A stretch of 64,000 bases of DNA from Psammoneis japonica (lineage: Eukaryota). The stretch is from NCBI GenBank assembly GCA_008632985.1, contig QPGO01000161.1, forward strand, positions 1-64,000, written 5' to 3'. The notes under the pieces were generated by a model. The model was not told where the DNA came from. It was given only the letters and a program-made list of their open reading frames with translations, and ran no database searches. Shown in pieces: positions 9,418-56,535 of the stretch (positions within the stretch are counted from its first letter, which is position 1; each line of letters starts with the position of its first letter). Both the position numbers and the translations under genes were made by a program.

Positions 9418-9649
9418 TAGTTCGCACCCCGATCTACCATGCGAAAAATATGAAATGAAAATTCTCAAATTGATTTTGTTGAGATTGTTTCTACATACAA
9501 CTTCTAGTTTGCCGAATCAGTTGACCGTATAGGGTTTGATTAAAAATAAAGTTGCTTGATTCGTCGTCGATTGAAACGCACTTTATTTTTCCTAGTTTGA
9601 ATGTTCAATGTGCTTTTATTTGTGATTTAGACCTTGTTAAAAAACCGTT

Positions 9650-19997: not shown

Positions 19998-20324
19998 TTT
20001 ACCATGCGAGAAACATGAAATGGAAATTCTCAGATTGATTTTGTTGAGATTGTTTGTGCATAGTTTGCCGAATCGGTTGACCGTAGTTTTTGATAAAAAA
20101 ATAAGTTGCTTGATTCGTCATCGATTGAAACGCACTGTTAAACTCGAATGAGTGAGCGTGTGTATTTTGCGCTTGTGGCAAATAAACGGAGTAATAGCGA
20201 ATTCGCTTTACAAGCGGGACATTGCCATCGCGACTGTACTCTGGCTCTTGCTTGTTTCCTCTATCTTTCTTTTCCTCATTGGCACCCCCCTCACAAAGAT
20301 CGCAGCTCCGTGTCAGCGTCATTT

Positions 20325-21154: not shown

Positions 21155-21994
21155 ATGAAGGCTTCTGGTGACAGCACGCTGTCATTGCTCGAGCTTGGAG
21201 ACGACGTCGTTTCTCAAGTGTGTACGTTTCTCGACGTCAGGGCGCTTTGTCGTTTCGAGCAGTCTTGTCGACGTGGCGTTCGTTTCACCCCGACTGCGTG
21301 GCATCGATTGAGCCAAGACAAAAGTGTACATGATGAAGAAACCAGTAATGACGCTCCACGCATCATTGTGGAACGTCGACATCGGCTCATTTCGTTCGCA
21401 ATGAGAATGAAACAAGAGGCCGACCAACATTATGGCGGTTACAGTGATCATGAATTGATGGACGTTACTTGTCCTGGTAAATGCAGTCTTCCCATGTTTC
21501 TTGATGTTGCCATGCCCATAGCTTCCCCAGAAAGTTACCGTTTCTGTTGCCATTATGGCGGTTACAGTGATCATGAATTGATGGACGTTACTTGTCCTGG
21601 TAAATGCAGTCTTCCCATGTTTCTTGATGTTGCCATGCCCATAGCTTCCCCAGAAAGTTACCGTTTCTGTTGCCATCTGTCCTATTTGGACAATATTCAA
21701 GAGTTCTGTTTCCCAGCCTTTGATGTTCTTCCCGCTGCTGGATACTTGTCTCCCTCATTTTATGATTTGGATCTGCCAGAAGAAGAAGACCTATTAAAGC
21801 ATTTTGCAACGATTCGATCTCATAAACTTCCTATTCAGAGCGAATGGCTGAAGACTTTACTGTTTGAACACAGCGTTGGTTTGAGATCTGGAACACCAGA
21901 GGACGAGTATTTTTCAAACCTCCGTATCGTTGTAGCCGTTGCAAGAGGGGATGACGCTCGCAGTTTGTACCCCTCGCTACTGCACCCATTATAA
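21155..21994 (+). CDS. F-box-like protein with an internal exact 41-aa duplication
   Basis: N-terminal LLELGDDVVSQVCTFLDVRALCRFEQSCRR resembles the F-box consensus. The 3' end is uncertain. Confidence 0.55.
   Translation: MKASGDSTLSLLELGDDVVSQVCTFLDVRALCRFEQSCRRGVRFTPTAWHRLSQDKSVHDEETSNDAPRIIVERRHRLISFAMRMKQEADQHYGGYSDHELMDVTCPGKCSLPMFLDVAMPIASPESYRFCCHYGGYSDHELMDVTCPGKCSLPMFLDVAMPIASPESYRFCCHLSYLDNIQEFCFPAFDVLPAAGYLSPSFYDLDLPEEEDLLKHFATIRSHKLPIQSEWLKTLLFEHSVGLRSGTPEDEYFSNLRIVVAVARGDDARSLYPSLLHPL
21428..21673 (+). repeat. Exact 123-bp tandem duplication (in frame)
   Basis: 21428-21550 equals 21551-21673, with cat microhomology at the junction. Confidence 0.95.
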
Positions 21995-23399: not shown

Positions 23400-26300
23400 T
23401 CATATTGTTGACGCAGAGTCCAGCTCATCAGGCACAATTGTGAGTTTTTTTGGGTTGGTGGCATTTTTCGTGCGTTGGGTCGTGCATGAAAGCCTACGTG
23501 GAAAAATGATCATTGCCCCGTCTATTGCCCTTGAGACTTTTTCTCGCCACTGACTGTTGAAATGCGCGACCAAACACTTGTTGCACTCACGCACTGGCGG
23601 TCGTGCGCATGGTCAGCACGGTTGCTTTGTGTGAAATGTTGATGCCGCACAACAACGCACAACACAGTGTGGCTGGGCATGTGCAATTCTGTGTTGGTGT
23701 GTGCAACTCCAGCTCCCAAAAGGGGTGACATCATGTGCCTTGCCCCCAGGTCAGATGTGCAAAGAACCGCTGTGGTCAGCTCAACAGCTTTTTGGCAGCG
23801 GGGTGTGTGCTTTGTTTCATTTTGCTCATGGCAGAGAGTGCAGTTTGCCCCCAGGTCAGATGTGCAAGAAACGGCGGTGGTCAGCTTGACACATTTTTGC
23901 AGCGGCGGCATGTGCTTTGTTTCATTCAGCGCACTGTGGTGCTCTGACACAGCAGGTGAAAAACACAGGGTTTTTGTCTCTTTCTCATGCAGGCAAGTGT
24001 GGCAGCAATGTGTCTTGGTTTTGTTTGTGTGCACAGCATCCTTGCCAAACCTGTTGTTTGTCCTGGCTGGTCATTGGCACAGCCCATTGTTGACAGATGC
24101 AAGCAGGGCATTGTCAGTGTGCTGCAGCACATCAGCACCCATTGTGCTGTGCACAGTGTCAGGGCCAGAGCTGTGCTGTTGCTCTCACTCAACAAAAAGA
24201 GCACTCAGCTCTCCAGCTTCTGGAGGGAGGCAGAAGTGCCATGCTGCCCATGTTGCTTTGGCCAACAAACAATGGCCATGGATGTAAAATTTGCAAACAT
24301 TGTGTGCTTTGCTCTCCCCTCAGCCACCACCACACATCATTTTTGGGGGGGGTTGCTTGCAAAAAAGGGGAGCACATGCTGAGGTGCTGTTGATTGTTGT
24401 GGTGCTCCTTGAAGGAAATGCTGTTGAGAAAATGGCAACAGCAGAGGTGCCATGTTGGGTGGTTTCCATGGTTTTTGGCTGCACTGCACCAATGGCGAAC
24501 TCATCTGAAACTGAGTCTCACACTTGTTGAGTTGGTGTGGCTGCCATTTTGCCCATCATGTGCCCACCATTCTCCTCAGTGGTGGGGCCAGCAGAAAAAA
24601 ATTGTGAGTCAGCAGAAAAAAAAAACAACTGCAGAGCTTGTGCACACAATTCCATGGGCCAATCTTTGCATGCTGGCCCACCCCAGGATGGGAGTGCATG
24701 CAAACAATGTCGCCAATCACACAAGGGGCAAGATCCTTTTGTGCCATCACTCTCATGAGGATGACAACAAAGTTTGGCCTCCTCCTTTCAGCAGGAACTT
24801 GAGCTGACAACAGGCCAAGGCACAAAGTGCTTCTTGTGAAGCTTGTCAATGGACCCAACTTTCCTTGGCCTCAGAAAAAAAGTTGCTCACCGCCATTGTC
24901 TTGTCAAAGTTGGCTTCATCAAAGGCAACATTTGAAAAATGCAAAGCAAGTGGCAACTCCCTGGAGTGTGCATGTTTTTGTTGTTTCTTCTGAGATTGCT
25001 CATGCTCTTGTTCCACGAATTGAAAAGAGCACATTGTGTGCTGGTGTTTTGATGGTGTCCATGGCGCACCAGTGGGCAAGTTGATGTTTGTGGTGCTCTT
25101 GTGATTTTCTTGGTGTGATGTGCGACACTGTGATTGACGCTCATCAGGCTGTCCATCTGAGCTCCTCGACATGACACCCTTGCTGCACATGCCACAGAAA
25201 CAACATCCAAATGAGTTGTGGTTGGCCAAGTCTCAACAGGGTGGCGCTGGGTGTGCATTCTTTTGGGGGTGCAGGTGCTTTGCAGCTCAAAAAGCTCGAT
25301 GAGCAAATGTGTGATCTTGGGGGGCTGTGCACTGCACCACTCTGGCATCACCAAGAAAACCACAATTTTTGATGACTTCAATGCAAAAGCTCACAAAAAA
25401 TCTTCTCATCTCTGCTCATCTTCATGTGGGTCACAAGCAACAACAAGCAGCACAACCATTTGCTCAAACATCAGCAAGAGACTTGACAAATCTAGCTTGG
25501 TGGACAAAAAAAGTGCAAGAAAGCCACTTGGAAAATTGCTGGCAAATCTCCTTCATCGCTGGCAGCGTGCAAAGCAAAAGATGCCATTTTGGGAGAAGCT
25601 CCAAGAGCAGTTCAACGAGGTGCATCAAAATGCAAATGTGAGCGATGCAGCATTGTTGACAGCATCTCCAGACAATGACAAGCAGAGAAGGCCACTGCAA
25701 ACAATGGTGCTGACACACAAGGATTGAAGCAAGTTGTGTGTGCTGACAAACAAAAAGGGACAGCTGGCCATGCAAAAGTGTCTCCAGCTGTGCTTCTCAG
25801 GGTGTTTGTCAGGAGTGAGAGAGAGAGACACAACATGCATGTCCTGCACAAAGCTGGTGAAAACAATTTTTTAGAACAAGCCAGTGCTCCAGCACAGGGT
25901 TGCAATGGAGCAGCCAGAGAAGCACACTGCACAGCGCGGCATCAACAATCTTTGCTGGCGTCAATCTGCATGTGAGCAAGAGTTGAAAGTGGGTGATCCT
26001 TGAAGGTTGCAGAGTGCAAAATTTGCATCAGCACATTGTGCCAAAATGGCGCCAATGGTGTGGTGTTGACAATTTCATTGATTGTTCATGGTGCACATTG
26101 GGGTTGTGTTCCTGTTGAAAAAAGAAAGTCTCCAGTTGAGCCCCACATTGGTGCAACCCAGAGTGGCAGCAAACTCTGACTTTCTGCCCATTTCTCATCA
26201 TCAACAAGAACATGGCTGGGAGTTTGAGGTCACCTCATCAGGCCCTTGCATGGCAGCTTCAATGCAGCTCAAGCTTGACAAAGAAAGAGAGCAGCAATGA

Positions 26301-29300
26301 CATCACTGGGTGAAATCATTTTGTGTGGCACAGACAAGAAGCTCAAGAAGTTTTCTCATTCTGTCCTTGTTGCTGCATGCCATCATCAGTTGGAAAGAGG
26401 GGAGAGGGGGGTGGATGAGCTCTTTTTGAACAAAGCATTGGTGACTCCCTGGAGTGTGCACAAAATTTGTTGTTTCTTTTCAGATTGCTCACACTCTTGT
26501 TCTGTGAATTAAAATGAAAAACATCTTGTGTGCTTTTTGATGTGGCATCCATGATGCTGGGCAAGTTGATGTTTGTGGTGCTCTTGTGATTTTCTTGGCA
26601 CAACACATGACATTGTGATCAAATGTTCAATGTTCACCAGGCTGTCTGTCTGAGCTTGACATCATGATGCTCAAACACTGCATTTTTTGTGCTTGCATCC
26701 ACGGTTGAAGATTGGCATTGAACTGACCCCTCCTTGCACACCGTGCCACACAAACAACATTCAAATGAATTGTGGCTCGCCAAGTCAACAGGGTGGTGGT
26801 GGATGTGCATTTTTTGGGGTGTGTGGGGGGAGACTTTGCTGTTCAACAAGCTCAATGTGCAAATGTGTGATCCTGGGTGTGGGGCCGCACTGCACCACTC
26901 TGGTGTAAAAATCACAGAGAAGACCTCATTTTTTTGTTGAGTCCACTGACCTCAATGCAAAAGCTCACAAAGAAACTTCTCATCTCTGCTCATCTTCATG
27001 TGGGTCACAACAAGTGACAAACTGCACAACCACTTGCTCAAACAGTGTCCTCCAGCACCCAGTTTTCTCATGCTGTCCTTGTTGACATGCTCCATTGTCA
27101 TGTCATGAGACAAATCAGAGGACCCATGAAGAAAGCAAAAACCAATGACAGACATGCTCTCCAGCTCCAGCTCCAGCTCCAGCTCCAGGTGGTGGTGGCA
27201 CCCAACATGGCTGCTGATCTTTCACGTGTGGATGTTTTTTTTTTGCACGCAGCACAACACCATCCACTCGACAACTTTTTCATGTTTGTTCACACACAAT
27301 GCCTCCTCACAGAGAACAAAAAGCTGCTGGTGGCAAAACTGTCGTGTGCACATTGATTGGCGCAAACTTTTTTTTTGTGAGAGATGGCTCACTTTTTCTT
27401 GGCCAATGATGTGCACATGTGTGTGTGTCTTTTGCAGTTGTCTGCGCCACTTCTTGTGCTCTCCTCAGGTCAGTGCTGCTGGTGGTGTGGCGCTGGCTCT
27501 TTGTGGCCCCAAAAATTCAAAAACACCCATCATTTTGTTTGTGTGTGTGTTTCAATGGTGTCCATGTGTGGTGATGGGGATGTTTTGAGGCGCTCTTTTT
27601 TTTTCTTGTTTGCGACATGGCTGGAACATGCAATTCAATGAGGCGTGTGTTGCACATGAACAGTTGCATTTTGGGCAAACAACTCCGAAATTCAGCTCCG
27701 ATCCCACAACATCACATCACAATGTTGAAACGGACAAAGGTTTGGCATGCTGACCATGTGCTTGTGATTTGAATGCTGGCGATTTAATCCATGGGATTTT
27801 GATTGTAACATGATGGAGTTGGGGTCTTTTTGCATTGTCCCCCACAATTTGTGCATTTGCAGTCTTCGACAGTGCTGCCATTGTGAAGAGCATGTTGCTG
27901 GAAGTTGTTCTTGATGGCTGAACGTGCCGATGGGTTGGAGTTCATCCCACACCTTGGGAATGGCGCCATGTCCTCTTGCAAATGCGTTTGTGGACAGGCA
28001 TCCTGCAAGAAAATCTCTGAAGCATTTGGGAGTCTCGGCAACATTCAAGGTTTGCATGCCCAGATGCCAGCGGTGAGGGAAGGTGCGAGAAAGCAGAGCT
28101 TTGGGAAGCTAAAGCAATCCAAGTTTGGCCGCTGCATGGATCACCTTGGTGGAAAAAATGCATTGGGTAATGTGAGCAATGAGACCTTTGACAAGTGCAG
28201 CCAAGGGTCAAAACCTGCTGCCAGCACCAGAAGCACTGTCAATGGCCCAAAGCACAAGGCCAAGAATGTGGCTTGGCATCATTTCCACCCGGTCATCATC
28301 AAGAAGGCATGCAACCCAGTGTCAAAGAGCTGCATGTGCATTGACATGATTCCATGTCAGTTTGTCCACGAGAGGATTGGCGCTGGCAATGGCCACACGA
28401 AAGAAGACTGACATGGTGATGAAAAGTGCACTGTGGTTCCAAGCTGTGTTCATGCTGCCGATGACTTGAAGATGCTGCAGTGCCGAAAGTCATTGGAGGA
28501 CAACACATTGGAGTAAAAACAGAGATGTCGACAGCAACCAGCAGGTCTGGACCATCCTGCGGGTGTCTCTTTCATGTGGAAGACAACTTGTCCATGTGCC
28601 CTTGGCTTGGTCGCAGCAGTGGTGCTCCATCTTTTGCTCCCATGCTCGCAGTCGCCTTCCTTTGGTCAGAACTCAATGCTGCCACCCTCACAACATGTGA
28701 GCAACTGGCGGAGGATTGTGGCACGCCGATTGATGAAAATGGACGCAACACATGATGCATTTCGACACATCAATCGCTCTTTGTCTTGATCCACCACCGG
28801 TGTTGATGTGTCCGCGAGCGAAATCTGACAGAAAACATCAGAGTGCAGCTGTTCACGCAAAACATGCGCCTTGTGTTCACTTGCACAAAAACGGTCCCTA
28901 ACTTGCGATCAAACTTTCACCACCAAAAGTGTGGATTTACACAATTGTGAATGTTTTGCAACACTGACAAGACTCGTGTGAGTGTTGCAATGTCATCGTC
29001 ATTGTGCCATCTGTGTTTTTCATTGCGTTAAAAGATTCGCAACACAGTGGATGATTTTCAGCGAAAACATTGCCATCATTTGGATGTTGCCCAAACGTGT
29101 CTTTCTGCCATGCTGCTTGGCAGGTTTTCTACCTGCAAAGAAATCTCAGTGCAAATCCACTGACTGACGTGCAATCAGCATTGAGTCTGCTGAGAGAAAG
29201 TTTGTGATGCATGTCCCATGAGGACTTGAATGCCCCACAAAAAACTGTTTGAATGTTCATGCTCTACAAGCCTGCAAAAGTCAATCCATCCAAGCATTTT

Positions 29301-39519: not shown

Positions 39520-40861
39520 TCACGAGGGGGCACGGTCGGTCAGACCAGGGATTTTGTTCGAGCGCGCGCACCGCGCCGCAGAGCGATGCGCGTGTTGGTT
39601 CGCCTCTTGAGAACTGAGCATGCGACAGCTCTGTTCACAGCACAGAGCAATGGTTTCCTGAGCATGACACACACTTTCATCACCTCTGGAGATCAAGAAG
39701 AGCAACTTTGGCATTGTTGCTTGAAGAGATTTGACACAATGTGATGGTGTGGCTCGAGGGGGCACACTGCCAAGTGTGCTGCCATCCTGGGTTTGAGAAA
39801 CTTTTGAACACATCACGAGGTTTTCCACATGTTTCTAAGTGACACATGCACCCAGCACCAAATCCATGTAAAAAAATCAAGCTCCACAGCAAAGACACAT
39901 TTTTTCACATCTCGAGCCACACCAATCATGTGCACCAAAAATGTGGCACACACCCTGCTGCGGCCATGCACTCGCCCCAACGGCCATTGTGTCTGAGAAG
40001 GTGAGAATGCCAAGACAGGTCAACAAGACTGTGCTCAGTGCAATGATGTGGATGAAATTTTTATTTTTTCCATTTGTTGCACCTTGTGGATGGCCTTTTG
40101 ACTCCCCTTGATGTTTCAGACTTCTCTTTTTCTCTTCTCTTTCTCAGATTGCAGGAGCACAGGGAGCCTCCACAGCTCTGGACTCTGTTGACTTGGTGCT
40201 TGCCACAAACAACAATGTGCATCTTCACGGTGCATTGGTTTGTTTCTTGTGATGCATTGAGTGCTCTTCAAGTCATCGTGGATGATGCTTTTGGGTCAAG
40301 AAAAAACACCAAATTTTGGTGCTCACAAAAGAATGACCTGCACTCAGTTTTTTAGGGTTCGAGGCAGTTAAGAAGCCTTTGGACAAGTCTGATGGGTGCA
40401 ATGTTGCAAAGTGGAACAAAAAACATTGTTCAAGATAAAACTGGTTCTTTTGAGCATTGAAATGTTGTCAACATTTTGCTGTCTCATCTCTGCTTCTGTG
40501 TTTCAAATGACCAAATTGCCCCACATTCATCAAACATCGACTCTGCCAATTCAGTGCCAGCGTGCAACTGACTCAAGAGTCCCACAAAAGTCAACAAATC
40601 AATTGATCTTTGAAGCAGTTGATTGCACAAAAAATGCACGATGCATGTGCCAAGCCAGGTTCACCGATTTTTCTTGTAAAAAAAAAGGAGTTGGGGTGCC
40701 TTTTTTTTGGCACAAACTCTTTGCACAATGAAAAATGCACAATTCTTTCAAAATGGTCAGATGCAATGAAAAAAAAAACAGCAGAACAGTCTTTCAAATG
40801 TGCCTGAAAATGAAGAGGAAGAGAGCCATCTTGGTTCAAGTTGTGGTTGTTCAATGACAGT

Positions 40862-40896
<35 letters not shown>

Positions 40897-43800
40897 CATG
40901 GCTGGAGCACCAACAACAAGACATGCAGAAAGCTCATGCACTGGGGCTGAAAAAGTGATGGCAAGGAATGAAGATCATTGAAAGCCCATGCACTGGAGCT
41001 GAAAAAAGTGTCGGTGATGAGTGAAGATCATTGGTTGTTGGCATTGCATGCTTTGGCAATTTTCTTCACATGTGCCAAAGGTTGACAGTTTTCCAAGGCT
41101 CTGACCATTGATGATGCCAGCTTGGACATTCTCTGATTTTTTGCTGTGCTGCACAACATGTGCACAGTGCATGAGCCACCAAGAAAAGATGGCAAAAACT
41201 GTTGACTTTTGACAAGATGCTGATGAAAGCAGACAGCATTGCACCAAAGAACAGCAGTTGTTGTCACAAAACTCTCAATGTTTTGCAGCTCGACACCAAA
41301 TCTGCAGTGTCCAACCTCACTGACCTTTTTGCTCTCTGGAGCATGTGGGCCACATTTGGCAAAATGGGCCAAGAACATCTGATCTTGTGACAACCCACCT
41401 CTCTTTTCAAAGTTGGCAGATGCACCTGGATGTGCAAATCACAATCACAGCCTCACTTGGTCATCTTTCCTGTTGTCACAGGAGGTGTGGTTTCTGCGCT
41501 CACCCCAGCATGATTTTTTAAATGCACCTCAGCCTTGGAAATGACACAACAGCCAAAGCCATCAGCACCTGCCTCTGCAGGCATTGCTCTGGCAGCCCTG
41601 CAATTCTTGGTGGCATCTTTGACAATGCGTTTGTCATCCTCCTGTCTCTTCATCTCCCCAGGACACCAGCTGTGGGCAACTCAGCATTTGTTTGTTTTTG
41701 CCATGTGTGCTGATGAAGCCAACTGCATGTCCTTTTGCAGCAATGTGATGTTTTGTGAAGGCAGCAATCCAGGTGCACCAGCAGAAAATCTTGGGGCAAC
41801 TGCTTGACACTGCAGACAAAGTTGAGCAAAGCAGCTGATGGGTTTTCAGAGAATGACAGCCTCTCAGTTGCAGACGCAATGGCACTCTGCCACTTTTGCC
41901 ACACGCTCATCTGTTTTGCCAAGCTGCTGTTGACACCAACACATTTGAAAGCAACGCCACAGTCCATGCTGGTTGGCACCCTCACATTTCTTGTTGTCAG
42001 CCCCCCCTCCACAAACTCCTGGCAGGTGAGTTCTTCTGAAGTTGTGGCCAAACCCTTTGCTCCAAGTTGCGGCGCCATGTCTTGTTTCTCTGCTGTCAGG
42101 CAATGCCACAAATGTGAGCCTTTTTTTGGCCTTGTTTTTGTTCTGCTCTCCAGTCATTTTGCAATCAATTCAGGCCACAACACAACCTCCATCTGCAAAT
42201 CTCTCAAGAAATGAGTGCACACCGTGTCCTCTGACACACAAGAAAAAGGACAAAGCACAGTCTTGCAACCCCCCCCCCCCCTCCTCCCAATGACTGGGGA
42301 TGGGAGGGGGTTTGTTGGCCTAAAGAAAATGTTTGTGTTCAATCTCAGAGCAACAACAATGGCCTGTCATGACAACAGAAGATGGCATTGTGCAGCATCA
42401 TGGTGACACACTGACAGGGTGGTGACACAGGGGTGGGTGCCCCTTGCCCCCAAACATGTGTTGCCTCCTGCTTGGTGCACTCCAGAGTTGGGGATCAGAG
42501 CAAACAACCTGCTGTTTGAGTGACTTTGGCTGAAATTTGCAATGCATGATGTGCTCCTGACTCCATGCTGGTGCCTTCTGAGCTGAGTGCAGCATGACCA
42601 AGCTTGGTCATCAAGCCACTTGAGGCATGCCACATCCTCACCCACCCACCCAGCATTTGCTTGGAAGATGTGCTTCAATGCACTCTTCATCTGGCTCAAC
42701 ACGCAAACACAAAAAGTTCTTGTGATCTTGCAGATGACTTCACAGTGCATGTCAAGGCACAAAGTTGCCAACCTTGCCAAAATTTTCTTGACCTTGAGTC
42801 CAGTCAAAGCCCAGACAAGTGCTTGAAATTGCTCAATCCATCAGCAGCAAACATTGCCTGTGATTCTTCCTGTGCACATCAATGTGTTTTCTTTCCCCAA
42901 ACCTCACATGCGGGTGTCCAAATTTGTTCTTCTGCACAGTTCACACAGCACAAATCACACAGGTCCAGATGTGGGCACTTTTTGAACACTCCTGGATGCA
43001 AGGTTAAACTTCATCACCCTGCATTGTTCCACTGGGTTCCCCACCTGATGTTGGAGTGTTTGATGCTTCATTCCACAGAGGATGGGAGAGCAGTTGATCC
43101 ACTGCTTGAAATTTAGAGCCAGCACAGCCCACAGCACTGATGTTTTCTGAGCTTGGAAGGCTGCTTCCAGATCAGGTCAAATTGTGGCTTTTCACCTGAG
43201 AAACAAATGGGACAAAAAATTCATTGCAAAACAACTTGACATTGGAAGAATCTGGATGCACAGCAGGTGAATGCTGAAAGAGCTCAAATCTCGGTCACCA
43301 AATGATGCATTTGTTTGAATCTTGAGTGTTCAACATTTCTGCATGATTCCTTTTTGCTGTGTTGATCCCTCCCCTGATTGGCACCTGTTGGGTCTTCATC
43401 AGCAATCGTCAACAAGAATGGAGAGCATGCCATGAAAAGCAAAAAATGATGTGCCAACAGTTTGAACAGCAGAAGGAAAAAGAAGCTTCAGAGCAAAGGC
43501 AACAATGCCTGGAAGCCCTCCTCTTTTTCAGTTGCCCTGCTGCTTCCACTGGTCTTGTTCAGAGGAGAGAAGGAACGGCGGTGTTGTGCATCTAGCTAGA
43601 GCTGACAATGGCTGAGCCTAAAATCTGATTGCAAAGTGACTTGATGATCAACAGAGCAGCAGCTGCATCCATGAGCATTGTGCGATGGCACTGCAAAGGT
43701 GGCAAGCAGTTTAGATGCAACCTTGGCAGCAGAGTGCGGTCCATCCAATGGGCAAACATGACCATCATTGTGCAGAGCAACAGAGTTGCCAGAAACAAAA

Positions 43801-45265
43801 AACTTTGAGGTCTGGAGCATGCTGGCTTGAATGTTGGAAGGACATTCCACCAATGAGCAGACAGCACCGGGAAACTGGCACCAACCACTGTTGATGGCTT
43901 GCTCTTGGACACCATGGCAGACATGGCAGACTTGACATTTGGCGACACAGCACCAGCAGGATCCATCTGAGTGTTTGCAACAATTGCATTTTCAGCTTGA
44001 GGCATGTGTCAGCAACACTGGAGCTTCTAACAGCAGACGTGGGAGCTGGGTTGAACTTGCACTCTGCAAACCAACTGGAACTTAGAGAAGATGTCACAGG
44101 TGAGGTGAGAAGCAAAAGAGCTGCTGCGTGTCCACTGCAGCAACTAAAAGGTGACACACCATGATTGCTCCAGTCCTTCTGCTGTGAGAAAGGTTGTCTG
44201 TACCCTTTTCAAAGCACACATGTTTCTTGGCAATGTTGAACTGAGAGGTTTCAAGATCATGCCAAAAATGACATTCTTGGTGGCATCAGATGAACACCCT
44301 CCTTGCAGCAGTTAACTTGGCACAGCAGCAGCCGGGTTCTTGGACTCAAACATGACAACCAATTTCAACCTTCCCAGTGGCTTTAGCAATGTGAGCTGCA
44401 TCTTGATCATTGCATGCAACAGATGCAGTGGAAACACCAGAAGACATGATGACAGCCAGAGTGGACAATGTGTGGACCCAATGAGGAGCCACGCGCAATG
44501 CTGCAACAAGATGTCAATCAATGCACGTCAATGAGGGGTTTGCATTCTTTCCTGCGTTGGCTTTCTTTTTGTTTGCTCTGGCAGCTTTCATTGCTCTGTG
44601 ATTTTGTGATCAATTCTTGGTGGGCCTGGCATTTTGAGGTTTGCTGCATTTTTTCCTGCAGTCTCAGAATTGGGTCGATTGTCCTTCATTCCAGTGGCAA
44701 CAGGCTTCCTGGATTCTTTGGCAGATTTGGAGCTTTTTGCAACCACTGACATCAGCAATTTCCATGTCAGATGGCTCATCTTCCAAGAGGATTGACCTTG
44801 GAAAGATCTGTGTCAGATGGCTCATCTTCCACGAGGGCTGTGGCTGGGTTCTTTGTCTTTGCCAGGGCTGATCCAGTCATCTCGCACAGGTTGTTAGAGT
44901 CATCTTGTGACTCTTCATTGCCCACAAAGTGCTCAAATTTGCCATCTTTGGGGGCTGCTTGAGTGCCAGCTGAGTCCAATGCCTTGTTGTTGTTTCGAGT
45001 TGGATGTTTTTTGTTTGCGTTTTTGAGGGAATTTGATCTCGCCTTGGGCACCCGTCTCCTTGCGAGCGGGCGGTGCACCCTTGCGTTTGGTCTTCCTGTT
45101 TGCCTGAAGAGACCCTCTTTGCACCGCCTGCGGTGAAAGCTGTTCTGTCTGTGTCCCTCCAATCAGATGCTACACGCCGTGTGCAGAGCCTCTCTAGAGT
45201 AGAGGTGCAAAGCGGCCGAAGTTATTCTTGCGAAGAGGCCCGACCGCTGCTGTGCCACGTGTGAG
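39520..45265 (-). mobile_element. Degenerate Mutator/MULE-like DNA transposon, TpA-depleted
   Basis: Minus-strand remnants resembling a MULE transposase: CSPILCG, LKWLDDQAWS..RHQHGVRSTSCIA (compare YG..TSN.AES) and a SWIM-like LTCQEF region. RING-like THCPL near 44470. Only weak terminal similarity (tctcac..ggcac..cggtc). Confidence 0.55.
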
Positions 45266-47122: not shown

Positions 47123-49614
47123 GTCCCACAACTAACCGCAAGCATGTCGCGGCTCCACATTGACAGGCAACTCATTTGGAATGCAATCAAAAGTCAATCA
47201 GCAGTCAAAAGTCAAGTCGGTGCAAGCGCTTCAACACATGGGCTAAAGTGGGTCAGGCCCGCAGCACGTCTTCGCCGCTGGAGCTGACACGTCAGAAACA
47301 GCAGAGCCAATCCCTCCCTGCCCTGGGAAGGCTCTGTGAGTAAAAAGGTGCCACCACAACAAGGGAGGGTGGGCAGGTGAAAAACAAAACAACAAGGGGC
47401 CCACCCACATTGTGGGCGATTCTCCAAAAGAGCGACAGCTCCCGGTGTGATTGGCGCAGTCTTTGTGCTCTCATTCTTCCTGCATTTTTTGGTGAGGTGA
47501 ACAATGGACCATTGGACCATTCAATGCAATGCCTCTGCCCCTGTTGACATCATTGGAGTGTTTCTGATGTCACTCTTTCTGAGCCCTTGCTCGCTCATCT
47601 CCACCTCAATCGGGGACAGAGCACACACATGACCAGACAGGGTGGGGAATGGGGCTGCTGGGTCTCATGGCAGGCCAAGTTAAAGACCATGGAAGTTGGT
47701 TGATTTCCTTGCCAAAACTTTGTGTGATGGTTGAATTTTGCACTTGTGAAAGGTGCAAGGTGCAAGGTGCACAAGGCAAAGCTCTTGCTCAACTGACAAC
47801 CCACCTTGCAAACTCCAATTGTGGAATTCCCAACAGCTTTTGTTGCTGAAAAATGCCATTGCTTTCCAACCCATGACCCTTTGTGCACCCCAGCCCAGGT
47901 GGTTCCACACCCCCAAATTGCCTTGAAAGGTCTTCTTGTGGCTGTTTGCCTTTGACAAAATGACTTTTGCACAGCGCAAAATGGTGTGTTCATCAACCCA
48001 TTCTCTCCAATCTCATTTCACTTGCAACTGGGCAATGGTCTGTTTTGGGCCTTGCACTCTTTTTTTGTTTTGTGTTTGACTCAGCTGTTCTTGTGATGGA
48101 CAAAGTGCCCTCTGTCCACTGTGGCAACCTGAGACACTCAGCAAGAATTTCACAATTGCAGGCTGGCAGAAAAAGAGTGCAAAAAAATCCATCAGCACCA
48201 ACAACTGAGCCTCAGCTCACTCACAATTTGCCACCAAGGACCGTTTCTTTTCTGTTGCCATGTGCATTTCCTCTGTTGTGTCGAGCGATGCAAGTGTGTC
48301 AGTTGATTGTGCCAACAAATGGTGAAAAAGGGTCCAAAGTTAATGCCATTGCTTGGGCTGCACTTCACTTCTGCTCACATCTTCTGAAACTTGTCAATCA
48401 ATGAATGTTTCATCAAGTCTGTGAGAGCAACTTGGCGACACGTGCTGCCAAGAGGGGCAATGGTCAAGTCTGTGAGAGCAACTTGCACTCATGCACATTG
48501 ACAAAAGATCATTTGTGTTGCACTCAAGAACAAATTTATGTACAAGAACATTGGTTTAATGGTTTCTTTGCACATGAGTGCATTTGTGAACAATCGCTCA
48601 TTGGAAAACAGAGGTTTCATCTTGTGGCACAATTTGGTGGTCAACAACTTGGTCCATCCTCAGATTTGGATGCATGGGCACATGCACAAGACCTTTCTGC
48701 ATGTGCCCATGACAACACATTTGAAAGTCATTGTGTTTCAATTGTTCCAGAAGTTTGGACTGTGCTTTTCATGCAAAAGGGGGCATTTTTTAGTGTGCGC
48801 ACACATCTGAGTCTGGAGCAAATCCTCATTTGTCTGTTTGTGCCCATCAATTTGTGTGGTGTGTGGTGTGTGGTGTGCACAATCTGCACAAAACCACCAG
48901 CACCAAACAGCTCACATGCACTTCCTCACAAAGATGTTTCTTCCACACAGAAAAGTGCCAGGCTTTTTGCCCACCATCACATGTGGAGTTCCAAGTCACA
49001 AACAGCAATCTGTGGGTAAAACCTGGTCTACAATCTCTGTCCTTTTGACAATGGAGTGCAACACAGTGAAGTGCAAAGGGCACCATGGCAGTCTTTGGGT
49101 GCCATCATCTCAAAATCCGGTGGGGGGGGGGGGGGGGGAGGGCACGACATTTTTGATGCATTCCAGCCCCAGGTGGGAGCTCAAAGTGCTGGAGTGTGAC
49201 ACAATCATTTTCATTGTGCACTGCTCTTTCACAGAATTGCCCCACCACACTCCCTGTTTTGTGAAGCCCAAGACTTTTCACTCAGCACACTGCACACTTG
49301 CGGGGGCAACAGCACACATGGGCATGCACTTTTCACCAATGTCTGAAGAGTGTGCTGGGGCAAACAAAAAACAGTGCACTTTAATCATGGATGAGTTTGT
49401 GTGGCAAAATTGCCTCTTTTCTGTTGGCGATCATTGGCACATTCTCATCAACTGGTGACTTTGCTGTGGAGCTTGCACAAAGAATTCTGTGGGCCCAGCA
49501 GCATCACATGAGGAATCCCCACCTGCATCTGGAGCATGTGTTTGACTTGTCAGCCACCCTCTGTTGGATTTTGCGACAACAGCGCCCGAGACGCGTTCCA
49601 GGTCTAGGTGGGAC
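47123..49614. mobile_element. Degenerate TIR DNA transposon with GTCCCAC...GTGGGAC termini and a 4-bp TSD (CTCG)
   Basis: ctcg|gtcccac at 47119-47129 and gtgggac|ctcg at 49608-49618. Interior TpA-depleted. Superfamily not determined. Confidence 0.65.
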
Positions 49615-49954
49615 CTCGCACTGCTGAACTGTGACATCGACAGTTTTTTGAATCACGTCGTATGTCGCGCACGTAGATTTCTACGTGATTTTTTTGATAT
49701 TTTGTGTCATTTTAAGGTACACTTATTGAGCGATCCGTCCAACAACTTTTGACATTTTTTGTTACAGCGCGATTCTATAATGTCTTAAGAATCGCGTAGG
49801 GCAGGTGCATTTGCAAAAACGTCGAGTGGTAAGAGGCATAATTGTACCACAAACTTGGCCGTTTATTTGATGTTGAAGATAAATATATCCATTAATTAAA
49901 TTCTCGTACTACGGAGCTCGCACGTAGAATTCTACGGGCCCAATGTCACACGGA

Positions 49955-49992
49955 GTCCCACCTAGGGCTGGAACGCGTCNTTCTCATGTGGG
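49955..49992. mobile_element. Ends of a second, inverted copy of the same TIR family collapsed around an N
   Basis: gtcccacctagggctggaacgcgtc is the reverse complement (2 mismatches) of 49590-49614. It is followed by N at 49980 and then atgtggg. cgga/cggag occurs on both flanks. Confidence 0.5.
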
Positions 49993-50406
49993 CGGAGATG
50001 ACATGACCACACGATGTGCACAGAGCATCTCAAAAATCTCTGGGATGCTCACATTGTCGCATTGTTTCTCTCAACAAAACATTGCTCTTCATCAGCATTT
50101 CTCAGCAACCTTGCTCTTGGTCAGTCGACACCACGTTGATTAAAAAAATTCAATGCAAATCAACAAAAAATTGGAAATGAAGAATGAACACATGAGATTG
50201 CGACATCGAGAAGCACAGACATCTAAAAATGACAGACTTGTTTTGACCGTGCCCGAACATTCAGAGATGCTTTTTCCATTCTTGCAAGCAACATGCGATC
50301 CGCGACTTGCGACTTCTTGTTGACCAAGCAGCAAAACGCGTCTCCTGTGATTCTGGATTCTTCCTTCAGTTTCCTTGAACAAACATTGCAGCTTGCACAT
50401 TCAACG

Positions 50407-53400
50407 ATGAAGAAGCCTGCCATTTCCTTGGCGACACTGTTGCTGTCTCTCTTCGTTGACCAGTGTGTGGGTCAAGCAGGGTCTGCTTGTGATCCTGCAG
50501 TGGGGTGCAACAACGGTCTTCAGTTTTGCGGAACAGACCCATCTTGTCGTTGGTTCTCATGCACCAACTGCTGCGAGTGCGGCCCAACCGATTTCACTGG
50601 TGATGACAGCTCAGCCCAGCTCACCTGCGCGCCTTGTGCTGGACCTGACACCTCGACTTTGGAACCGAGTTTAGGTGTGGTCAAGACGTTGGCGATGCTC
50701 CACTGACGAGGGTGGACTTCAATGAGATTTGTGCCGCCTTGACCCAATTGTTGTCTGGAATCCAAGTTTTCCAGTGCCTCGCACGCGCCAGTGGCACAGA
50801 CTTTTTGGCATTTGTGGCTGAAACACTGGCATTGAACCAAAGCAATCCTTGTGATGAGGGCATTAACTTCTGCTCATGCAGGACCCGTGCCGCTGCCCCT
50901 GGCACTGGGCATCTCACAACCGGAAATCAGCACTTCAACTTCGATGAAACCTTTCCTCCACACTGCATTGACGCAACGCTCTCTGCACAGGCTCCTCGCA
51001 TCACCTCTCCCGCTCCCGGTGACTGTGCCAGCGACAACGACTGTGCCGGTGGATTTGAGTTTTGCGGTGCAGACAAGGCTTGCCATGCTCACTTGTGCAC
51101 CAAGTGGCATGAGCATGGCCACACTGACTTTGCGAGCAACGATGGTGCCGCCAAGCTTTCTTGCACAGAGCTTGCCAGAACAGCACAGAACATTGCTGGT
51201 GTTTCATTCAGGTGCGACAACCCAACATCCACCGATGCAGTTCGTGCGGCCTTTGATCACAACTGCACTGCCACGATGTTGATTTCATCCTTTGAGTGCT
51301 GGGACTGCTTCGAGGGCTGTGACTTTGCCAATTTTGTCAATGAAGCTGGGTTGTCCAGTGTCCAGTGCCAAAATGCTTCTGACACTCCAAGGTGCTGCCA
51401 TGACCTTGTCGCCCAGCAAGGTGCAGCAGGTGCTGTCATTGGGGCGTTTGGTGCTTCAATCGCGTTTAACCAAGAGTTCACCAAGAGGACACTGTCGTCA
51501 ATTGTCGCCGTAAATGGGAGACCTGCTGGGTCTCCCACCCCTGTGGCAACACCTCCTCCGACACCGCTGACAGCCAAGCCATCCACCGGCAGTCCTTCAC
51601 TCACTGCTTCACCCATTTCTTCACCCGCTCCACTTCCCACCCCTGTGGCAACACCTCCTCCGACACTGCTGACAGCCAAGCCATCCACACTGCTGCTGAC
51701 TCCTGAGACCCGCCCCCAAAACGATGACTGCGAAACTGCGACAGTTGTTGAGGAGGAGTTTCTGTTGCTGTTTGAGATAAAAATGTCACAGGGTTTGAGA
51801 GAGAGAGGTGTCCCTCTTTTTTTTTTTCTTCGACAACAACCATCCGGGTTCCTCTCAGTGGTCACGTAGAATCGCACACAAAATGAGCACTAGAATTTGA
51901 GGTGCAGCCACCACAAGATCAAAAACAATGGCAATGAAGCCGGTCCGTTTGTTTGCATTTTCATCACATTGCTCTCTCCAGCGGGGCTTGCTTTTGGAAA
52001 GGCATCCCGAACGACTCAAAGTGATGCTGCAGTGCATTGTTGATCACGTTCAACTGGTGGCAGGCACGGCAAGCCTTGCCGCCGCCGTGCTGAGACTGCT
52101 GAGACAGGGGGTGCAAGGACATTTCGCACTGGCAGTGAACGTCAACTCCAATGTTGGCACAAGCACCATCTCTTTTATGGAGAACTGCCATTCGACACCA
52201 GTCAAAAAAATGCTTTTTGTGCGTGAAGCACACCTTCGTCGCCATGGAGAACTTGAGGGCAGTCAGGCGGATTGGCAAGACTTGCATTGTGGGGAGTTGG
52301 CCTGCCGGCATGCCCACTGCAGCAGCGAAGCGGTGTCGAGAAGGTGGGGTGCCGGGGATGAAGAATTAGAGTGTTCAAGGTTGGTGGTTGGGGTGTCATC
52401 TGAGTGGCACTGTGTTGTCTCGAGTCAATGTCCAATCTCGAGTGGTGTCTTCTCGAGCAGTGAACATCGCATCTCGAGTGGTGTCGTCTCGAGCAACAAA
52501 TGTTGTCTCGAGTGCCATCATCTCAAGCATCATACGGCAGTAAATGCTGCACAACACAGTCTCAAGTGGCATCATCTAGCTGCTGCAGGGCCCCAGTCTC
52601 GAGTGGCATCATCTCGAGCCAGCAAATGTTTGGTCTCGAGCAGCATCTAGCGTGCCCAGCAATGCAACAGTTGCCCTAAAGCATGTCTTCTTGTCCTGCA
52701 CATGGTGCTTCTTCAGTTTAGCATGTGTTGCAGCATGTTTGATTGTGTCATGAAAAAACCTTGTCAACGTGAAAATCTCCGTTTTCCTCGTCGTTGTCAC
52801 CTCATCGCGATCCGAGTGCGAGAGTTGCGACACATCCTCCTCCCTGCTCTGCATTGCAAAATGAACAGGTCGAAGGCAAGTGCAAGCAATTGGTGTAGAA
52901 CAAATGGAGAGAATTTTGGTTCGCACTCACCAATCCGTTTGACATGGAATGGGAGAGATCACACTCTACTTCGCAAATTGGAGTTGTCTTTGAGGTGACA
53001 CGAACAGAGCAGTTTGGGTCCTTCTGAGCTGGCTCCAAGAAAGATGTCAAAAGCTCCTGTGGCATTTCTGGTGCAACTGAAGCTTTCAGTAGATTAGAGT
53101 GGGCTTTGGTTTGTTCTATGATCCCTTTTTGCTTCAGAACAAACACGGTTTTGTCGAAGTGAATGAGAAGTTTCGCAGGTTGCGACCCCTCGGTTTCTCG
53201 CGGGTTTCTGAGCCCTCTTCAGAATCACACGAGCCCAGATTGATGGCAGAACACTTCATACTTCGACTAGATGTACGATCATTGTGTTCGGGTTGGTTAG
53301 TTGCGTGCCGCTTGGCGGCGGAGCAGCGGCGGTCCTCATGGTTGACATCGGTGTGTTTTGATGGTTGCATCAATTCTACTAGCACTTATTTTGTGTACGA

Positions 53401-54680
53401 TTCTACGTGACTACTGAGAGGAACCCGGAAGGTTGTTGTCGAAGGCAAAAAAAAAAAAAGGACACCTCTCTCTCTCGAACCCTTTGACATTTTTACCTCA
53501 AACAGCAATAAATGAAAGTACGGAGGGCGCGTCCGACGAAATTGACGCCACTTCCCTACAATGTATCGGCGTGAGTGTAACGGCACCTGGCGTGTGGTAC
53601 ACAGTGACGGGATCAGGAACGATGATGGAAGCAGATACTTGCACCAGCCAAACGGCACTTGATACAAAGATTGCAGTGTTTGAGTCATCTTGTTCAAGTT
53701 TGAAATGTGTTATTGCTAATGACGATGAGTGTGGAAAAGGGAGCTCGGTATCATGGATTTCTAAGCTTGGCGTTGAATACAAAATTCTTGTTTCAGGATC
53801 TCAAGGAACAGGTGATTTTTCGTTGCGGGTGGCAGAAGCAACATCCGTACGCACAGGATCCTGTCAAGATATACACAAGTCTAAAGCTCTGATTGATCAT
53901 CGGTGTTGCGAAGGCAGCAACTGCAGAAACGTCACGTTTTGCTTTGGCATGATGCTGGCTCACCCAAAAGCTGTCCTATCGGGGTGCTGCGAGTCCTATG
54001 ACGGATGTCGTCAGACGAAACACTTTCTTCGCACACTTGATCAGCTACGAAAGCTTTCAACGGCCACCTTCGTAATTTCTTGTGTCGTCATTTTCTTTGT
54101 TCTAGCCAAGGTGATTATTGTCCTGATGAGCATTAAGAAGTGGATGTGTTCTTGTCGGCAATTGCGCATGCCGTGTAACATATCGACGGCAACATACTAC
54201 CTGACTACGAACAGTCTCATTGTTTTTTTTGAAATTGCCGATCTTTGTCTCAATGCTTCAATCATTGCCATCATGAGTAACCGCAGCCCACAAGACAAAG
54301 CTCAAGCAATCATAGACAACGAGTGCTTTGTACTGCAAAGAAATGCCCAAACAATCGCGGATCTAATCAATGCGTTAGAACCCTTTGAAAGGATTGCAAT
54401 CGCAGAGTTAGTTCTGGACATTTTGGTTATCATACTTCATGCGGTTGAACTTTGGAAAGGGATCCCTGCTGGTGTCAGCGATAGATTCGTTATGGCAGCT
54501 GCATCCATTCTTGATGCTGCCGAGCTTGTACTGGCTGCAGTCAACCTTTACGTGGTTTTGATTCCTGCAATAGAGGGTTTTGAAGAGCTTTTCGACAGCC
54601 TGGGCATTGATCCCATCACTCAAAGCCTATCAGTCCTTGTACCCTGTGTGTTTGCGTGTTGCGGCATCACTTTGCTATAA
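50407..54680 (+). pseudogene. Secreted/membrane protein gene (two Cys-rich repeats, PT linker, PPC-like beta-sandwich, C-terminal TM helices) split by a transposon; 5' half hypermutated
   Basis: Signal peptide MKKPAISLATLLLSLFVDQCVG. Removing 51765-53510 restores the frame: NDDCETATVVEEEFL|NESTEGASDEIDATSLQCIGVSVTAPGVWYTVTG...DTKIAVF..CVIANDDECG..SSVSW. Frameshift near 50670. Confidence 0.85.
51765..53508. mobile_element. Non-autonomous TIR DNA transposon, TA target site (Tc1/mariner-like), about 130-bp TIRs
   Basis: 51765-51895 is the inverted copy of about 53375-53508. Right TSD is TA (53509-53510) and left TSD reads TG (51763-51764). Excision restores the host ORF. Confidence 0.85.
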
Positions 54681-55380
54681 AGCAGAGCAAGAGTTTGGAG
54701 CAAGTAAATCGAACGCCGGGCGTAAGAATTGGTTGGTGCAGTAGAAGGTATGCCGGCAAATCGAAATCAAAAATCAATGCTGTGGCGAGTTCCACATGGC
54801 CCAAATGCCAGCTTGTGATGGCGCGTACACCTCTATTTGGCTTTGTTTTCATGGAGTGTAGTCTCGATTTCTACCAGTCAATGGTAAGCTGTATTACTAT
54901 CAATCAATGTTGAACCAATGCCTGGTGGGAACCACTGTAAGACCGCCCAACCATTTGGTTTTAGCCAAGATACTTGCAAGAGATAGAATCATGGGTCCAC
55001 GGAACTAGTTGCAGTCGGGGCAACACGAGTCTGACAGAATCAATTGGGAAATCCATATCAAAGCAAACGACGAGAGCATGATCTCGATTGCAACGGGATG
55101 CATTTGCGGCAGGAGTTGGGAAAGTAAACATCGAGGGACCGCATGGGGAATCAATTCGGGGAAGCAATGCCTGCTCAACAAGAAAAAGATGAAAGCATCA
55201 TGTCGTTTGGGATGGGCTTTCAAACAAGTCTTTTCTATTAGAATTATATTGCGGCGGAAGTCGGGGATAAAAAGCGATTTTCGGGGTACAGCAGTTAAAA
55301 TTCCAATTTGTAGATTTAAAATTCAAGTTGGAATTGCTTCCGCTGGGTAAACCACGAAACACGTCTTCTGAATGCGTTTG

Positions 55381-56535
55381 CTACATTGCGTCACGAATCG
55401 AATAAAGACGTGACGCATTCCACCCGTAACCGTCTTTTCGAGCATTCATCAATTTTACGATCTTTTCCCCTTTACCGACAGCATAATTTGCATGGTAGGT
55501 AATTGGGTTATCGTTTTCCGGGTAATCATCCCGACCTATCGGATAATCGTAGCCATCCAAGCAGCAGAGGCGGGCTGTCGAATTTTTCATTTCGCCAGAG
55601 ACAGGTGAGGATTCACCAACAATACCATCAACTTCCTGTCCAGTGCAATGCGCAAAATGTTCATGCGCATTATTGTAACTCGAATGAAATGCGTTCCAAA
55701 ACAAGGCCTGATCGTCTAGTCTGTTTTTGGGTTCCTCACACCTCGCGAGCGTTTCTTCAATTACTTTTTGGAAAAAGACATTCGTATGAGACATGAAATA
55801 AAAACCTGTATTGCCTTCTCGTGGCACTCTGCCTTGTGTTAAACACGAGTGCGATCGGGGTATTTCAATGCGGTCGTTGACTTGATAAATGTAGTCATAT
55901 CGCCGTGACTGAATCAGTTTTCCAAAGTCGTGTATAAGAGGATTCTGTAGAAAGACGTTGTCACAATCAGAGAATATCACGTCGACCTTGCATTCCCGAA
56001 GTATGTGCAAGACTTGCCTCAATTTGTTACATGAGAGAGTATTGAAACCTTTCTGCCGAAAGAGTTGCTGGCCCTGTACCGCGTACCCCGGGTCTGTTGG
56101 GACGACTCTGGATTTAGTTTTGTTCTTGCTCAAGGCTCGATCAATTTCTTCGTCTAAAGCTAGAACAGCCCATTTTAGGTTGTGATTATGAGCCAAGTAC
56201 TCCCAGTTCTGTAATATATCGAGATAGTCATAGTTGGCCGCAGTCACAAGAACCGTTCTTTCCCACCCTTGTTGATGGTCGTCGTTGCGAAATACTCCTG
56301 TCGCGTCACGTATTGCCAAGGGACAATGATCATTGTTGGGGCTTACTGTCTCTTCATTTGGTTGAATGTTATTCTCGATGGATAAAGTGTCCTCCTTAAT
56401 TGGCAGTATTGACAAGTGAGTAATTTCCTTTGGCAGTGTGGACCTGAAGTATTCAAGAAGAATTGCAGCATTGTAAGCTGACAGAATAAGCGGAACCGAA
56501 AGGGATATGGTTAAACCTCGGGCAATAGTCTTCAT
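55381..56535 (-). CDS. Nucleotide-diphospho-sugar transferase (GT77-like)
   Basis: N-terminal TM helix. Motifs TAANYDYLDILQNW, DVIFSDCDNVFLQNP (DxD), NTGFYFM, DDQALF and HANYAVGKGEK. Confidence 0.85.
   Translation of the reverse strand: MKTIARGLTISLSVPLILSAYNAAILLEYFRSTLPKEITHLSILPIKEDTLSIENNIQPNEETVSPNNDHCPLAIRDATGVFRNDDHQQGWERTVLVTAANYDYLDILQNWEYLAHNHNLKWAVLALDEEIDRALSKNKTKSRVVPTDPGYAVQGQQLFRQKGFNTLSCNKLRQVLHILRECKVDVIFSDCDNVFLQNPLIHDFGKLIQSRRYDYIYQVNDRIEIPRSHSCLTQGRVPREGNTGFYFMSHTNVFFQKVIEETLARCEEPKNRLDDQALFWNAFHSSYNNAHEHFAHCTGQEVDGIVGESSPVSGEMKNSTARLCCLDGYDYPIGRDDYPENDNPITYHANYAVGKGEKIVKLMNARKDGYGWNASRLYSIRDAM

Follow-up and report, generated by a model that had tools for sequence, protein, structure and literature searches.

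TA-to-TG/CA changes at one end of a gene-splitting inverted-repeat element of Psammoneis japonica, and the edge of a TA-depleted domain inside the element

The stretch of DNA analysed here, called the window, comprises 64,000 nucleotides of Psammoneis japonica (assembly GCA_008632985.1, contig QPGO01000161.1, positions 1 to 64,000 of the forward strand). For one gene of the window, the nearest clusters in a protein atlas were all eukaryotic; the best hits of a second atlas search carried no taxa. Between positions 50,407 and 54,680 the window carries a gene for a putative secreted protein. The gene is interrupted by a 1.7-kb element with terminal inverted repeats (TIRs), and a domain poor in the dinucleotide TA (TpA) covers the 5' half of the gene and most of the element (Table 1). 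A first-pass annotation, made from the sequence alone, had proposed that the TIRs and the two copies of the target-site duplication record the direction of mutation, TA having become TG or CA after insertion and only on the left side. The direction, the edge of the mutated domain within the element and the two-base duplication were borne out by the present analysis, while the premise that the TIRs were near-identical at insertion was not.

Table 1. Positions of the features at the locus, counted in the window
Feature	Position	Strand	Remarks
Younger TA-depleted domain	50000..53090	.	19 TA, 308 TG, 308 CA and 125 CG in 3,090 bp
Host gene, 5' half	50407..51764	+	signal-peptide-like start at 50407, cysteine-rich domains, Pro/Thr-rich linker; TA-depleted
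Target-site duplication (2 bp), left copy, now TG	51763..51764	.	seen in sequence; contig 51638-51894 with 0 other letters
TIR element, 1,744 bp	51765..53508	.	no recognisable transposase; multi-copy in the genome of the one sample with the locus
Left inverted-repeat arm	51765..51893	+	within the TA-depleted domain; TG at 51859-60, CA at 51875-76, TG at 51884-85, TTG at 51795-97
Internal short repeats, units with TCTCGAG	52400..52650	.	mid-element; internal blastn matches 52432-52640
Right inverted-repeat arm	53379..53508	-	outside the depleted domain; TA kept at 53412, 53396 and 53387; CG at 53476
Target-site duplication, right copy, TA	53509..53510	.	seen in sequence; three other contigs match up to 53510, then diverge
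Host gene, 3' half, unmutated	53511..54680	+	6 Tyr, 45 TA; starts mid-domain (NDxC...APGVWY type)

The two arms displayed 90% identity over 130 nt when aligned, and the outermost 12 nt were identical and intact in both. Only one copy of the 1,744-bp element was found in the window. It is flanked by TG on the left and TA on the right, as the first-pass annotation had it. A duplication of two bases was the sole match between the flanks among lengths of 2 to 10 and boundary shifts of a few bases. Judged by the target-site lengths of the PIF/Harbinger, hAT and piggyBac families, flanks of these types were set aside, since no match was obtained for duplications of 3-10 bp or for shifted boundaries. 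When 1,746 bp were removed (the element plus one copy of the duplication), a single open frame of 761 codons resulted, whereas removal of 1,744 or 1,748 bp left a stop at the junction. The spacing between the NDxC and APGVWY motifs was 35 residues across the restored junction, compared with 30-34 in relatives. The restored frame and this spacing indicate that the element is inserted in an exon and has split a domain. As for the empty site, none of the 7 listed contig joints spans 51764 to 53509, which is not evidence of its absence. Three contigs from other copies of the element match it through 53510, TA included, and then diverge, which suggests that a TA adjoining the terminus is a family feature. 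The two copies of a duplication are identical at birth by mechanism. The TG and TA now found at them are thus read as a real change after insertion, and as one from TA to TG, given the TA at the three other ends.

All four arm mismatches quoted in the first-pass annotation were recovered: 51860 G against 53412 A (TG/TA), 51875 C against 53397 T (CA/TA), 51885 G against A (TG/TA, in an ungapped reading) and 51796 T against 53477 C (TTG/TCG). The last pair is a CpG change and not a TA change, and CpG is only partly depleted in the domain (observed-to-expected ratio, o/e, 0.62), so this difference may be part of a second, slower process. The earlier list had omitted further differences (left/right) at 51777 A/G, 51789 C/A, 51816 C/T, 51842 A/T and 51888-51889 CA/TG, together with three indels (one C, GC and TAG). 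Arms and flanks thus differed by 11 substitutions in 130 aligned positions. In four of them TG or CA on the left faced TA on the right and in none was it the reverse; the others were one TG/CG pair, four other transitions and two transversions. Three of the four TA-type events led to TG and one to CA. Three TAs (51778, 51867, 51891) have been kept in the left and the right arm alike. Four duplicate pairs that are free of the mutation, taken from normal parts of the window, were aligned as a control. In these, 22 of 331 differences (6.6%) exchanged TA with TG or CA, and the direction was balanced (12:10). Against this baseline, 4 TA-type events among 11 gave P = 0.004, and P = 0.0003 when one direction only was counted. 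The claim that changes occurred on the left side alone holds for these four events but is perhaps not strict, for GCAC in the left arm (51887-51890) faces GTGC in the right, the pattern that one TA hit on opposite strands, once in each arm, would leave.

The composition of the TA-depleted domain was compared with that of the next 3,090 bp to the right of its edge, where 127 TA, 245 TG, 220 CA and 157 CG were counted. The sum of TG and CA was 616 in the domain against 465 outside it, and this excess of 151 is close to the deficit of 108 TA plus 32 CG. TG and CA were equally frequent in the domain, which indicates that both strands were hit without strand bias. The o/e values in 50000-53089 were 0.10 for TA, 1.59 for TG, 1.61 for CA and 0.62 for CG, while AA, AT and TT were unchanged; AA in particular was not depleted (1.22 vs 1.15). 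Over the whole window, TA fell below 0.2 of expectation in 25 of 64 one-kb bins, in which TG and CA were almost doubled, and in the oldest-looking depleted blocks CG also reached only about 0.1 of expectation. When the depleted blocks were pooled, only TA (o/e 0.05) and CG (0.23) were low, and AA, AT and TT were again unchanged. A Pfam search with 58 frames from these blocks yielded no domain.

The depleted blocks differ in how much CG is left. At 47.5-49.5 kb both TA and CG are lost, while at 50.0-51.76 kb, with a TA share of 0.016, CG is partly kept. Per 250 bp, 1-4 CG were counted in the older-looking block 47500-49500 and 6-14 in 50000-53089. Since both blocks are stripped of TA and the younger one keeps more CG, TA loss appears to precede CpG loss. 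The TAs that survive were collected from the blocks 10001-16000, 24001-28500, 40001-44800, 47500-49400 and 50000-53089. The context YTAR accounted for 45 of 69 of them, compared with 216 of 1,353 in normal DNA, and no TA survived in ATAT, GTAT, CTAT, ATAG or TTAC. This suggests TAY as the preferred target on each strand.

The end of the mutated domain had been placed near 53090, inside the element, and the maximum-likelihood change point of TA/(TA+TG+CA) fell at 53090 (fit over 50000-56000; 2-logL support interval 53048-53259). The TA share changed from 0.030 on the left of this position to 0.212 on its right. Allowing for an intermediate zone at 52533-53257, in a two-step model, improved the fit only marginally. 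From the low value of the left flank the TA share rose across the element to 0.02-0.05, then 0.07-0.085 and finally 0.17, and the TA counts rose with it, from 5 in 735 bp through 8 in 590 bp to 14 in 419 bp. On the right side and in all gene-bearing parts of the window the share was 0.19-0.23, against 0.016-0.05 on the left.

The edge could alternatively be a breakpoint of recombination or gene conversion that joined a mutated to an unmutated copy. The several copies of the family are possible donors, and contigs from other copies stop matching at 53003, 53055, 53105 and 53137, which points to structural differences near the edge. However, the stepwise fall of the TA share resembles a gradient more than a single junction, and whatever happened in the interior of the element, its left flank is mutated and its unique right flank is not. 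A chimeric copy is therefore thought unlikely, and it would alter the origin of the edge only and not the direction of mutation.

The direction could be determined independently in the adjoining host DNA. The main frame of the left half (50649-51764) has 372 codons without a single Tyr. In a protein search it gave 40 matches at E <= 0.001, and 28 aligned relatives contained 2.4-6.6% Tyr (P = 1e-4 at the lowest rate). At five alignment columns in which Tyr is the majority residue the window has His, His, Trp, Cys and His, that is, His or Cys at four of five, while among the residue counts listed for these columns H or C was found in only 2 relatives' cells. As TA to CA turns Tyr into His and TA to TG turns it into Cys, the loss of Tyr polarises the change as TA to TG/CA. 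The frame contains 4 TAs to the left of the element and 45 to the right, distributed over the three codon positions as 0, 1 and 3 on the left and as 7, 21 and 17 on the right. The right half still encodes a recognisable domain with 47% identity to a relative over the matched part. The ATG-started, signal-peptide-like frame 50407-50706 (99 codons) does not share the phase of the main host frame. Compared with related copies in the reads, which carry an additional base after 50658, the window copy is 1 bp short near this position. It follows that this gene copy also carries a frameshift and, as judged from these sequences, is dead twice, by the insertion and by the frameshift near 50658.

Public contigs provided a second comparison. 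They include a related copy of the left gene half that is about 88% alike. Among the 40 listed of 393 differences, the window had TG or CA where the other copy had TA in 8 cases and the reverse in 1; for the CG type the numbers were 9 and 1. When all places in run X1 were taken, the window had G or C against A or T in 188 cases and the reverse in 118. Contigs of single-copy depth reproduced the left junction and arm (51638-51894) with 0 other letters and the right arm and flank (53384-54700) with 1. With both junctions confirmed in this way, an artefact of sequencing or assembly, such as miscalls at modified bases, is hardly credible. It would account for eight listed places within 51094-51200 at which all contigs differ from the window, six of them TG/CA in the window and CG in the other sequence, and at which the window's own letters were not seen. 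However, both contigs found there may be related gene copies, and at least one of them is (26 other letters in 239).

A second pair of elements showed the same type of change. A fresh copy of a TIR element of about 390 bp lies at 49590-49979 (27 TA, 27 CG, arms 92% complementary), and 46 bp to its left a second copy was found at 49155-49543, with 1 TA, 2 CG, 45 TG and 51 CA. Between the two copies 21 changes from TA to TG/CA were counted against 1 reverse, and 23 against 1 for the CG type. The two ends are the part mainly to be trusted, and they gave 5 TA-type, 11 CG-type and 0 reverse changes in 129 positions. The fresh copy stands between two depleted blocks and is either a recent insertion or was spared. 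Its right terminus directly adjoins the only N of the window, at position 49980. The direction proposed in the first-pass annotation, from TA to TG/CA after insertion and on the left side, is thus upheld by the Tyr loss, the related gene copy, the three ends flush with TA and the pair of 390-bp elements.

The opposite direction was also considered. Repeat-induced point mutation (RIP) of Neurospora and other fungi changes C to T, mainly CpA to TpA, and thereby makes TA from CA/TG; it is guided by sequence duplication. With its dense, local, transition-only mutation, which disables transposons and can spill into neighbouring DNA, it resembles the pattern described here. The available text of PMC7296669 presents RIP as a repeat-directed mutator, and a RIP-like process acting on the right end and its flank would leave the left side as the original state. 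Against this, the TA share on the right equals that of the gene-bearing parts of the window while that on the left is far lower, and relatives carry Tyr where the left host half has His or Cys. Moreover, TA is found in the related gene copy and at three other element ends, and it is the right host half that keeps a recognisable domain. A change in this sense is considered extremely improbable.

Another explanation is an untargeted, genome-wide pressure from TA to TG/CA under which TA is kept only by selection, the domains being simply unselected DNA. It would agree with the dead state of the mutated host half and with the loss of TA at all three codon positions. However, TA is at its normal level in three stretches that are unlikely to be under selection at the level of dinucleotides, namely the 3' half of this dead gene, the 419 bp at the right end of the element and the fresh 390-bp copy, and the edges are sharp. 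This explanation was judged very improbable.

A further alternative is that TG and CA already stood in the family's left arm at insertion, the TG flank then being a separate point mutation. Some of the asymmetry must indeed predate the insertion. The premise of near-identical TIRs at insertion does not agree with six further, non-TA substitutions and three indels between the arms, while the flanking 2.3 kb of frame show no break where the two host halves meet. The arms had thus probably acquired much of their asymmetry before the insertion, and the same could be true of each single TA/TG site in them. The other copies of the element are also diverged from this one (about 8-13%), and a family consensus was not obtained. 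In contrast, the 4:0 direction matches the side that lies within the depleted domain, and TA-type differences make up 36% of the total here but 6.6% in the control duplicates. The copies of the duplication cannot start unequal, and the adjoining host DNA, polarised independently, shows the same change. That the TG and CA of the left arm are ancestral is considered improbable on this evidence. When the evidence from the arms and from the domain is taken together, it is very probable that most of the arm and flank events are in-place changes from TA to TG/CA after insertion.

Several observations weigh against this reading. The bare 4:0 direction gives a sign test of only P = 0.06, and chance alone, at the 6.6% baseline, would account for about 0.7 TA-type differences among the 11. 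The six non-TA substitutions and three indels mean that the arms were already unequal, and without a consensus of the family arm single arm sites are not individually polarised. Three TAs persist in the left arm, where conversion thus reached about half, as against about 90% in the flank. At 51777 the left arm has A and the right G, an A/G change in the opposite sense, though outside any TA. The predicted TAY targeting fits only 2 of the 4 events at the element, with contexts read by eye. The contigs come from one sample of one study, and the run may be the assembly's own data. The comparison of letters with the related gene copy covers the best-supported 40 of 393 differences, all in the host gene. 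The 390-bp pair aligns poorly in its interior (104 other differences among 362 positions), under a score that tolerates transitions. Finally, the enzyme, the chromatin mark, methylation and the mutation rate all lie outside these data, so that the whole mechanism discussed below is inferred.

Whether the process follows homology or position can be judged from the repeats that it left alone. The right 419 bp of the element, with 14 TA, are untouched although they are multi-copy (depth 418-587). A duplicated 2.9-kb gene segment (6759-9582 and 17116-20136; 81-92% identity, long open frames) has normal TA and CG, with a TA o/e of 0.56-0.81. Duplication alone would thus seem to have no power to attract the mutation. 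With an edge inside a multi-copy element and duplicated genes untouched, the process looks guided by position and not by homology, a view that is held to be reasonably probable. It differs in this from RIP, by which the duplicated segment and the multi-copy right end would not be expected to be left untouched, and the direction is opposite as well. The core of the interpretation (direction, restriction to TA and partly CG, strand symmetry and the edge), together with guidance by position taken loosely, is regarded with good confidence.

The following course of events is proposed. A TIR DNA transposon with a TA target-site duplication would have landed in a coding exon of the secreted-protein gene. 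A local process would later have turned TpA into TpG or CpA on either strand and, more slowly, CpG into TpG or CpA. About 3.1 kb (50.0-53.09 kb) would have been mutated in this way, including the 5' half of the dead gene, the left copy of the duplication, the left arm and the element over some three quarters of its length, so that the mutation would have stopped inside it. The four TG/CA-versus-TA differences between the two ends would be the footprints of this process. The left-to-right gradient of TA and CG reads best as a silent-chromatin domain spreading rightward. Such a domain may have extended out of the older block at 47.2-49.5 kb, which is fully depleted, once the gene had been killed by the insertion. 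The TA that was needed at 51763 for insertion fits an insertion before the front arrived. The chemistry at TpA could be deamination of adenine in DNA, A becoming inosine that is read as G, as proposed in the available text on Bigelowiella natans, and the CpG loss could come from methylated cytosine decaying in the usual way within that silent domain. An adenine deaminase as the enzyme is a tentative suggestion. The complete model, in which an editor guided by chromatin domains deaminates adenine at TpA on both strands, independently of homology, and advances as a front from old silent DNA, is likewise put forward as a possibility on the doubtful side. Two other mechanisms were dropped. Targeting of WA by a polymerase-eta-type enzyme does not agree with the AA content given above, and transcription-coupled editing of one strand does not agree with TG being equal to CA.

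Mutation of WA motifs by polymerase eta is part of antibody hypermutation, and ADAR and APOBEC enzymes edit retroelements. A change of A to G after T and a deaminase-based defence against mobile DNA would be common to these systems and to the process considered here. However, the WA preference of polymerase eta would deplete AA too, and the editing of RNA that is then reverse-transcribed cannot leave marks in place on a DNA transposon and its host flank.

The closest known system is that of Bigelowiella natans, a chlorarachniophyte. A preprint describes TpA-restricted hypermutation of integrated viral DNA, with TpG or CpA as the product according to which strand is hit (Mettrop et al., bioRxiv 10.64898/2026.01.13.699255). 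According to its available text, the changes were measured in mutation-accumulation lines on insertions of giant viruses and virophages, and a role against foreign DNA, possibly including transposons, was suggested (10.64898/2026.01.13.699255). As there, the changes in P. japonica are nearly exclusive to TpA and confined to regions, and TpA depletion with CpA and TpG enrichment in clustered 1-kb windows is the B. natans footprint in the same text. The restriction to TpA was seen here in the TA o/e of 0.10, in 4 arm and flank events against 0 reverse and in the change of Tyr to His or Cys, and the action on both strands in TG = CA = 308. As to a confinement to foreign or mobile DNA, the edges are sharp, but half a host gene lies inside the domain and the right end of the element outside it. 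A mutation rate raised by orders of magnitude, as measured across generations, is a further mark of the B. natans type. Unlike the direct measurement in B. natans, only a footprint is available here, and in another eukaryote. The depletion is far deeper (TA o/e 0.02-0.1 compared with a Rho of 0.45 in that text). CpG loss is found here, while the term CpG is absent from the preprint text as available. An edge inside a transposon and the inclusion of half a host gene are further differences from the B. natans description. In the literature searched no TpA-erasing mutation was described in diatoms or other stramenopiles, the B. natans preprint being the sole match.

Decay of methylated CpG resembles the CpG-to-TpG/CpA part of the changes, which makes up 1 of the 11 arm differences and is reflected in a CG o/e of 0.62 in this domain and 0.23 in all depleted blocks. 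It does not account for the TpA loss, the faster and more complete of the two. In diatoms, transposons undergo DNMT5a-dependent methylation according to the available part of PMC9998398. By analogy, deamination of methylated cytosine would fit the CpG part if the host is a diatom.

A DNA mutator aimed at TpA has so far been the subject of one report on one alga, in 2026. The present locus forms an internal control, with two element ends and two copies of the duplication placed 1.7 kb apart across the edge of a domain. Its particular value is that the states before and after mutation and the domain edge occur within one element. If the proposed process is real, the editor was caught part-way through a gene-killing transposon, and one element preserves both states. 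Guidance by position rather than copy number would set the process apart from RIP in fungi and suggests chromatin as the guide; the model predicts a change in methylation, histone marks, small RNAs or inosine in DNA at 53.0-53.3 kb. The change of TA to TG/CA creates no in-frame stop and removes TAA and TAG, and mutated DNA therefore keeps long Tyr-free frames, of which the 372-codon frame is an example. Such an editor would scramble proteins, with every Tyr turned into His or Cys, and still leave long open frames. These frames can pass for genes and would mislead gene prediction, and now and then they could become raw material for new coding sequence. In such genomes, dating a transposon by the divergence of its ends will give wrong ages. 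The first-pass annotation had also suggested that mutated ends block remobilisation. This remains its own inference; the terminal 12 nt have stayed intact on either arm.

The element itself was classified from its ends, its copies and its coding content. In the one public sample that contains the locus, the summed contig depth over the element was 211-725 against 56.6 on the unique right flank, and in run X1 the examined stretch was matched at >=80% in 176 contigs. From the depth and these contigs it appears that the family has several diverged copies in the genome, about 4-12 of them as suggested by the depth. Other copies differed from the window copy by about 8-13% (31 of 232 and 30 of 382 letters). 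In the reads, some of them skip 102 and 175 bp in the region of the TCTCGAG repeats (joints 52493 to 52596 and 52529 to 52705). A search of Pfam with six internal frames of the element gave nothing usable, with one sub-threshold match to a domain of unknown function. Protein searches with the frames 53093-53407 (+) and 52805-53218 (-) found no match among proteins of near-query length (in the first of these frames, two of the disputed TA sites would have appeared as Tyr codons in any other copy), and the arm sequence gave 0 matches in metagenome and viral collections. A DDE/D transposase of the Tc1/mariner type was not found in these six frames by Pfam or with these two frames by protein search.

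Tc1/mariner and Stowaway-type TIR elements duplicate a TA target site. The present element resembles them in its TIRs (about 130 nt, 90% alike) and its two-base TA flank, one copy of which is now TG, and in that other copies abut TA. It differs from them in the lack of a transposase or Pfam domain in the six frames and in its unusually long arms. The right flank is TA and the left TG, its ancestral TA being deduced. The assignment to Tc1/mariner made in the first-pass annotation draws on the TA flank and is a tentative one. With no usable Pfam match and no protein relatives, the element is treated as a non-autonomous or unclassified TIR element.

The motif CACGTAGAAT occurred three times in the window (49921-49930, 51863-51872 and 53400-53409), compared with 0.06 expected. 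The first site lies in a subterminal palindrome of the 390-bp element, the other two in the left and right arms of the 1.7-kb element; a transposase-binding site may be common to both families.

With respect to the host gene, run X2 (30 million letters) contained a 1,873-nt contig of a related gene copy over 50611-51536 at a depth of 447, and the locus's own letters were absent from it over this range. Run X2 may be an RNA or enriched library; no RNA run was among those listed as holding the locus. Elsewhere in the window, a perfect tandem duplication of 126 bp (100% identity) was found at 21428-21676, in normal DNA.

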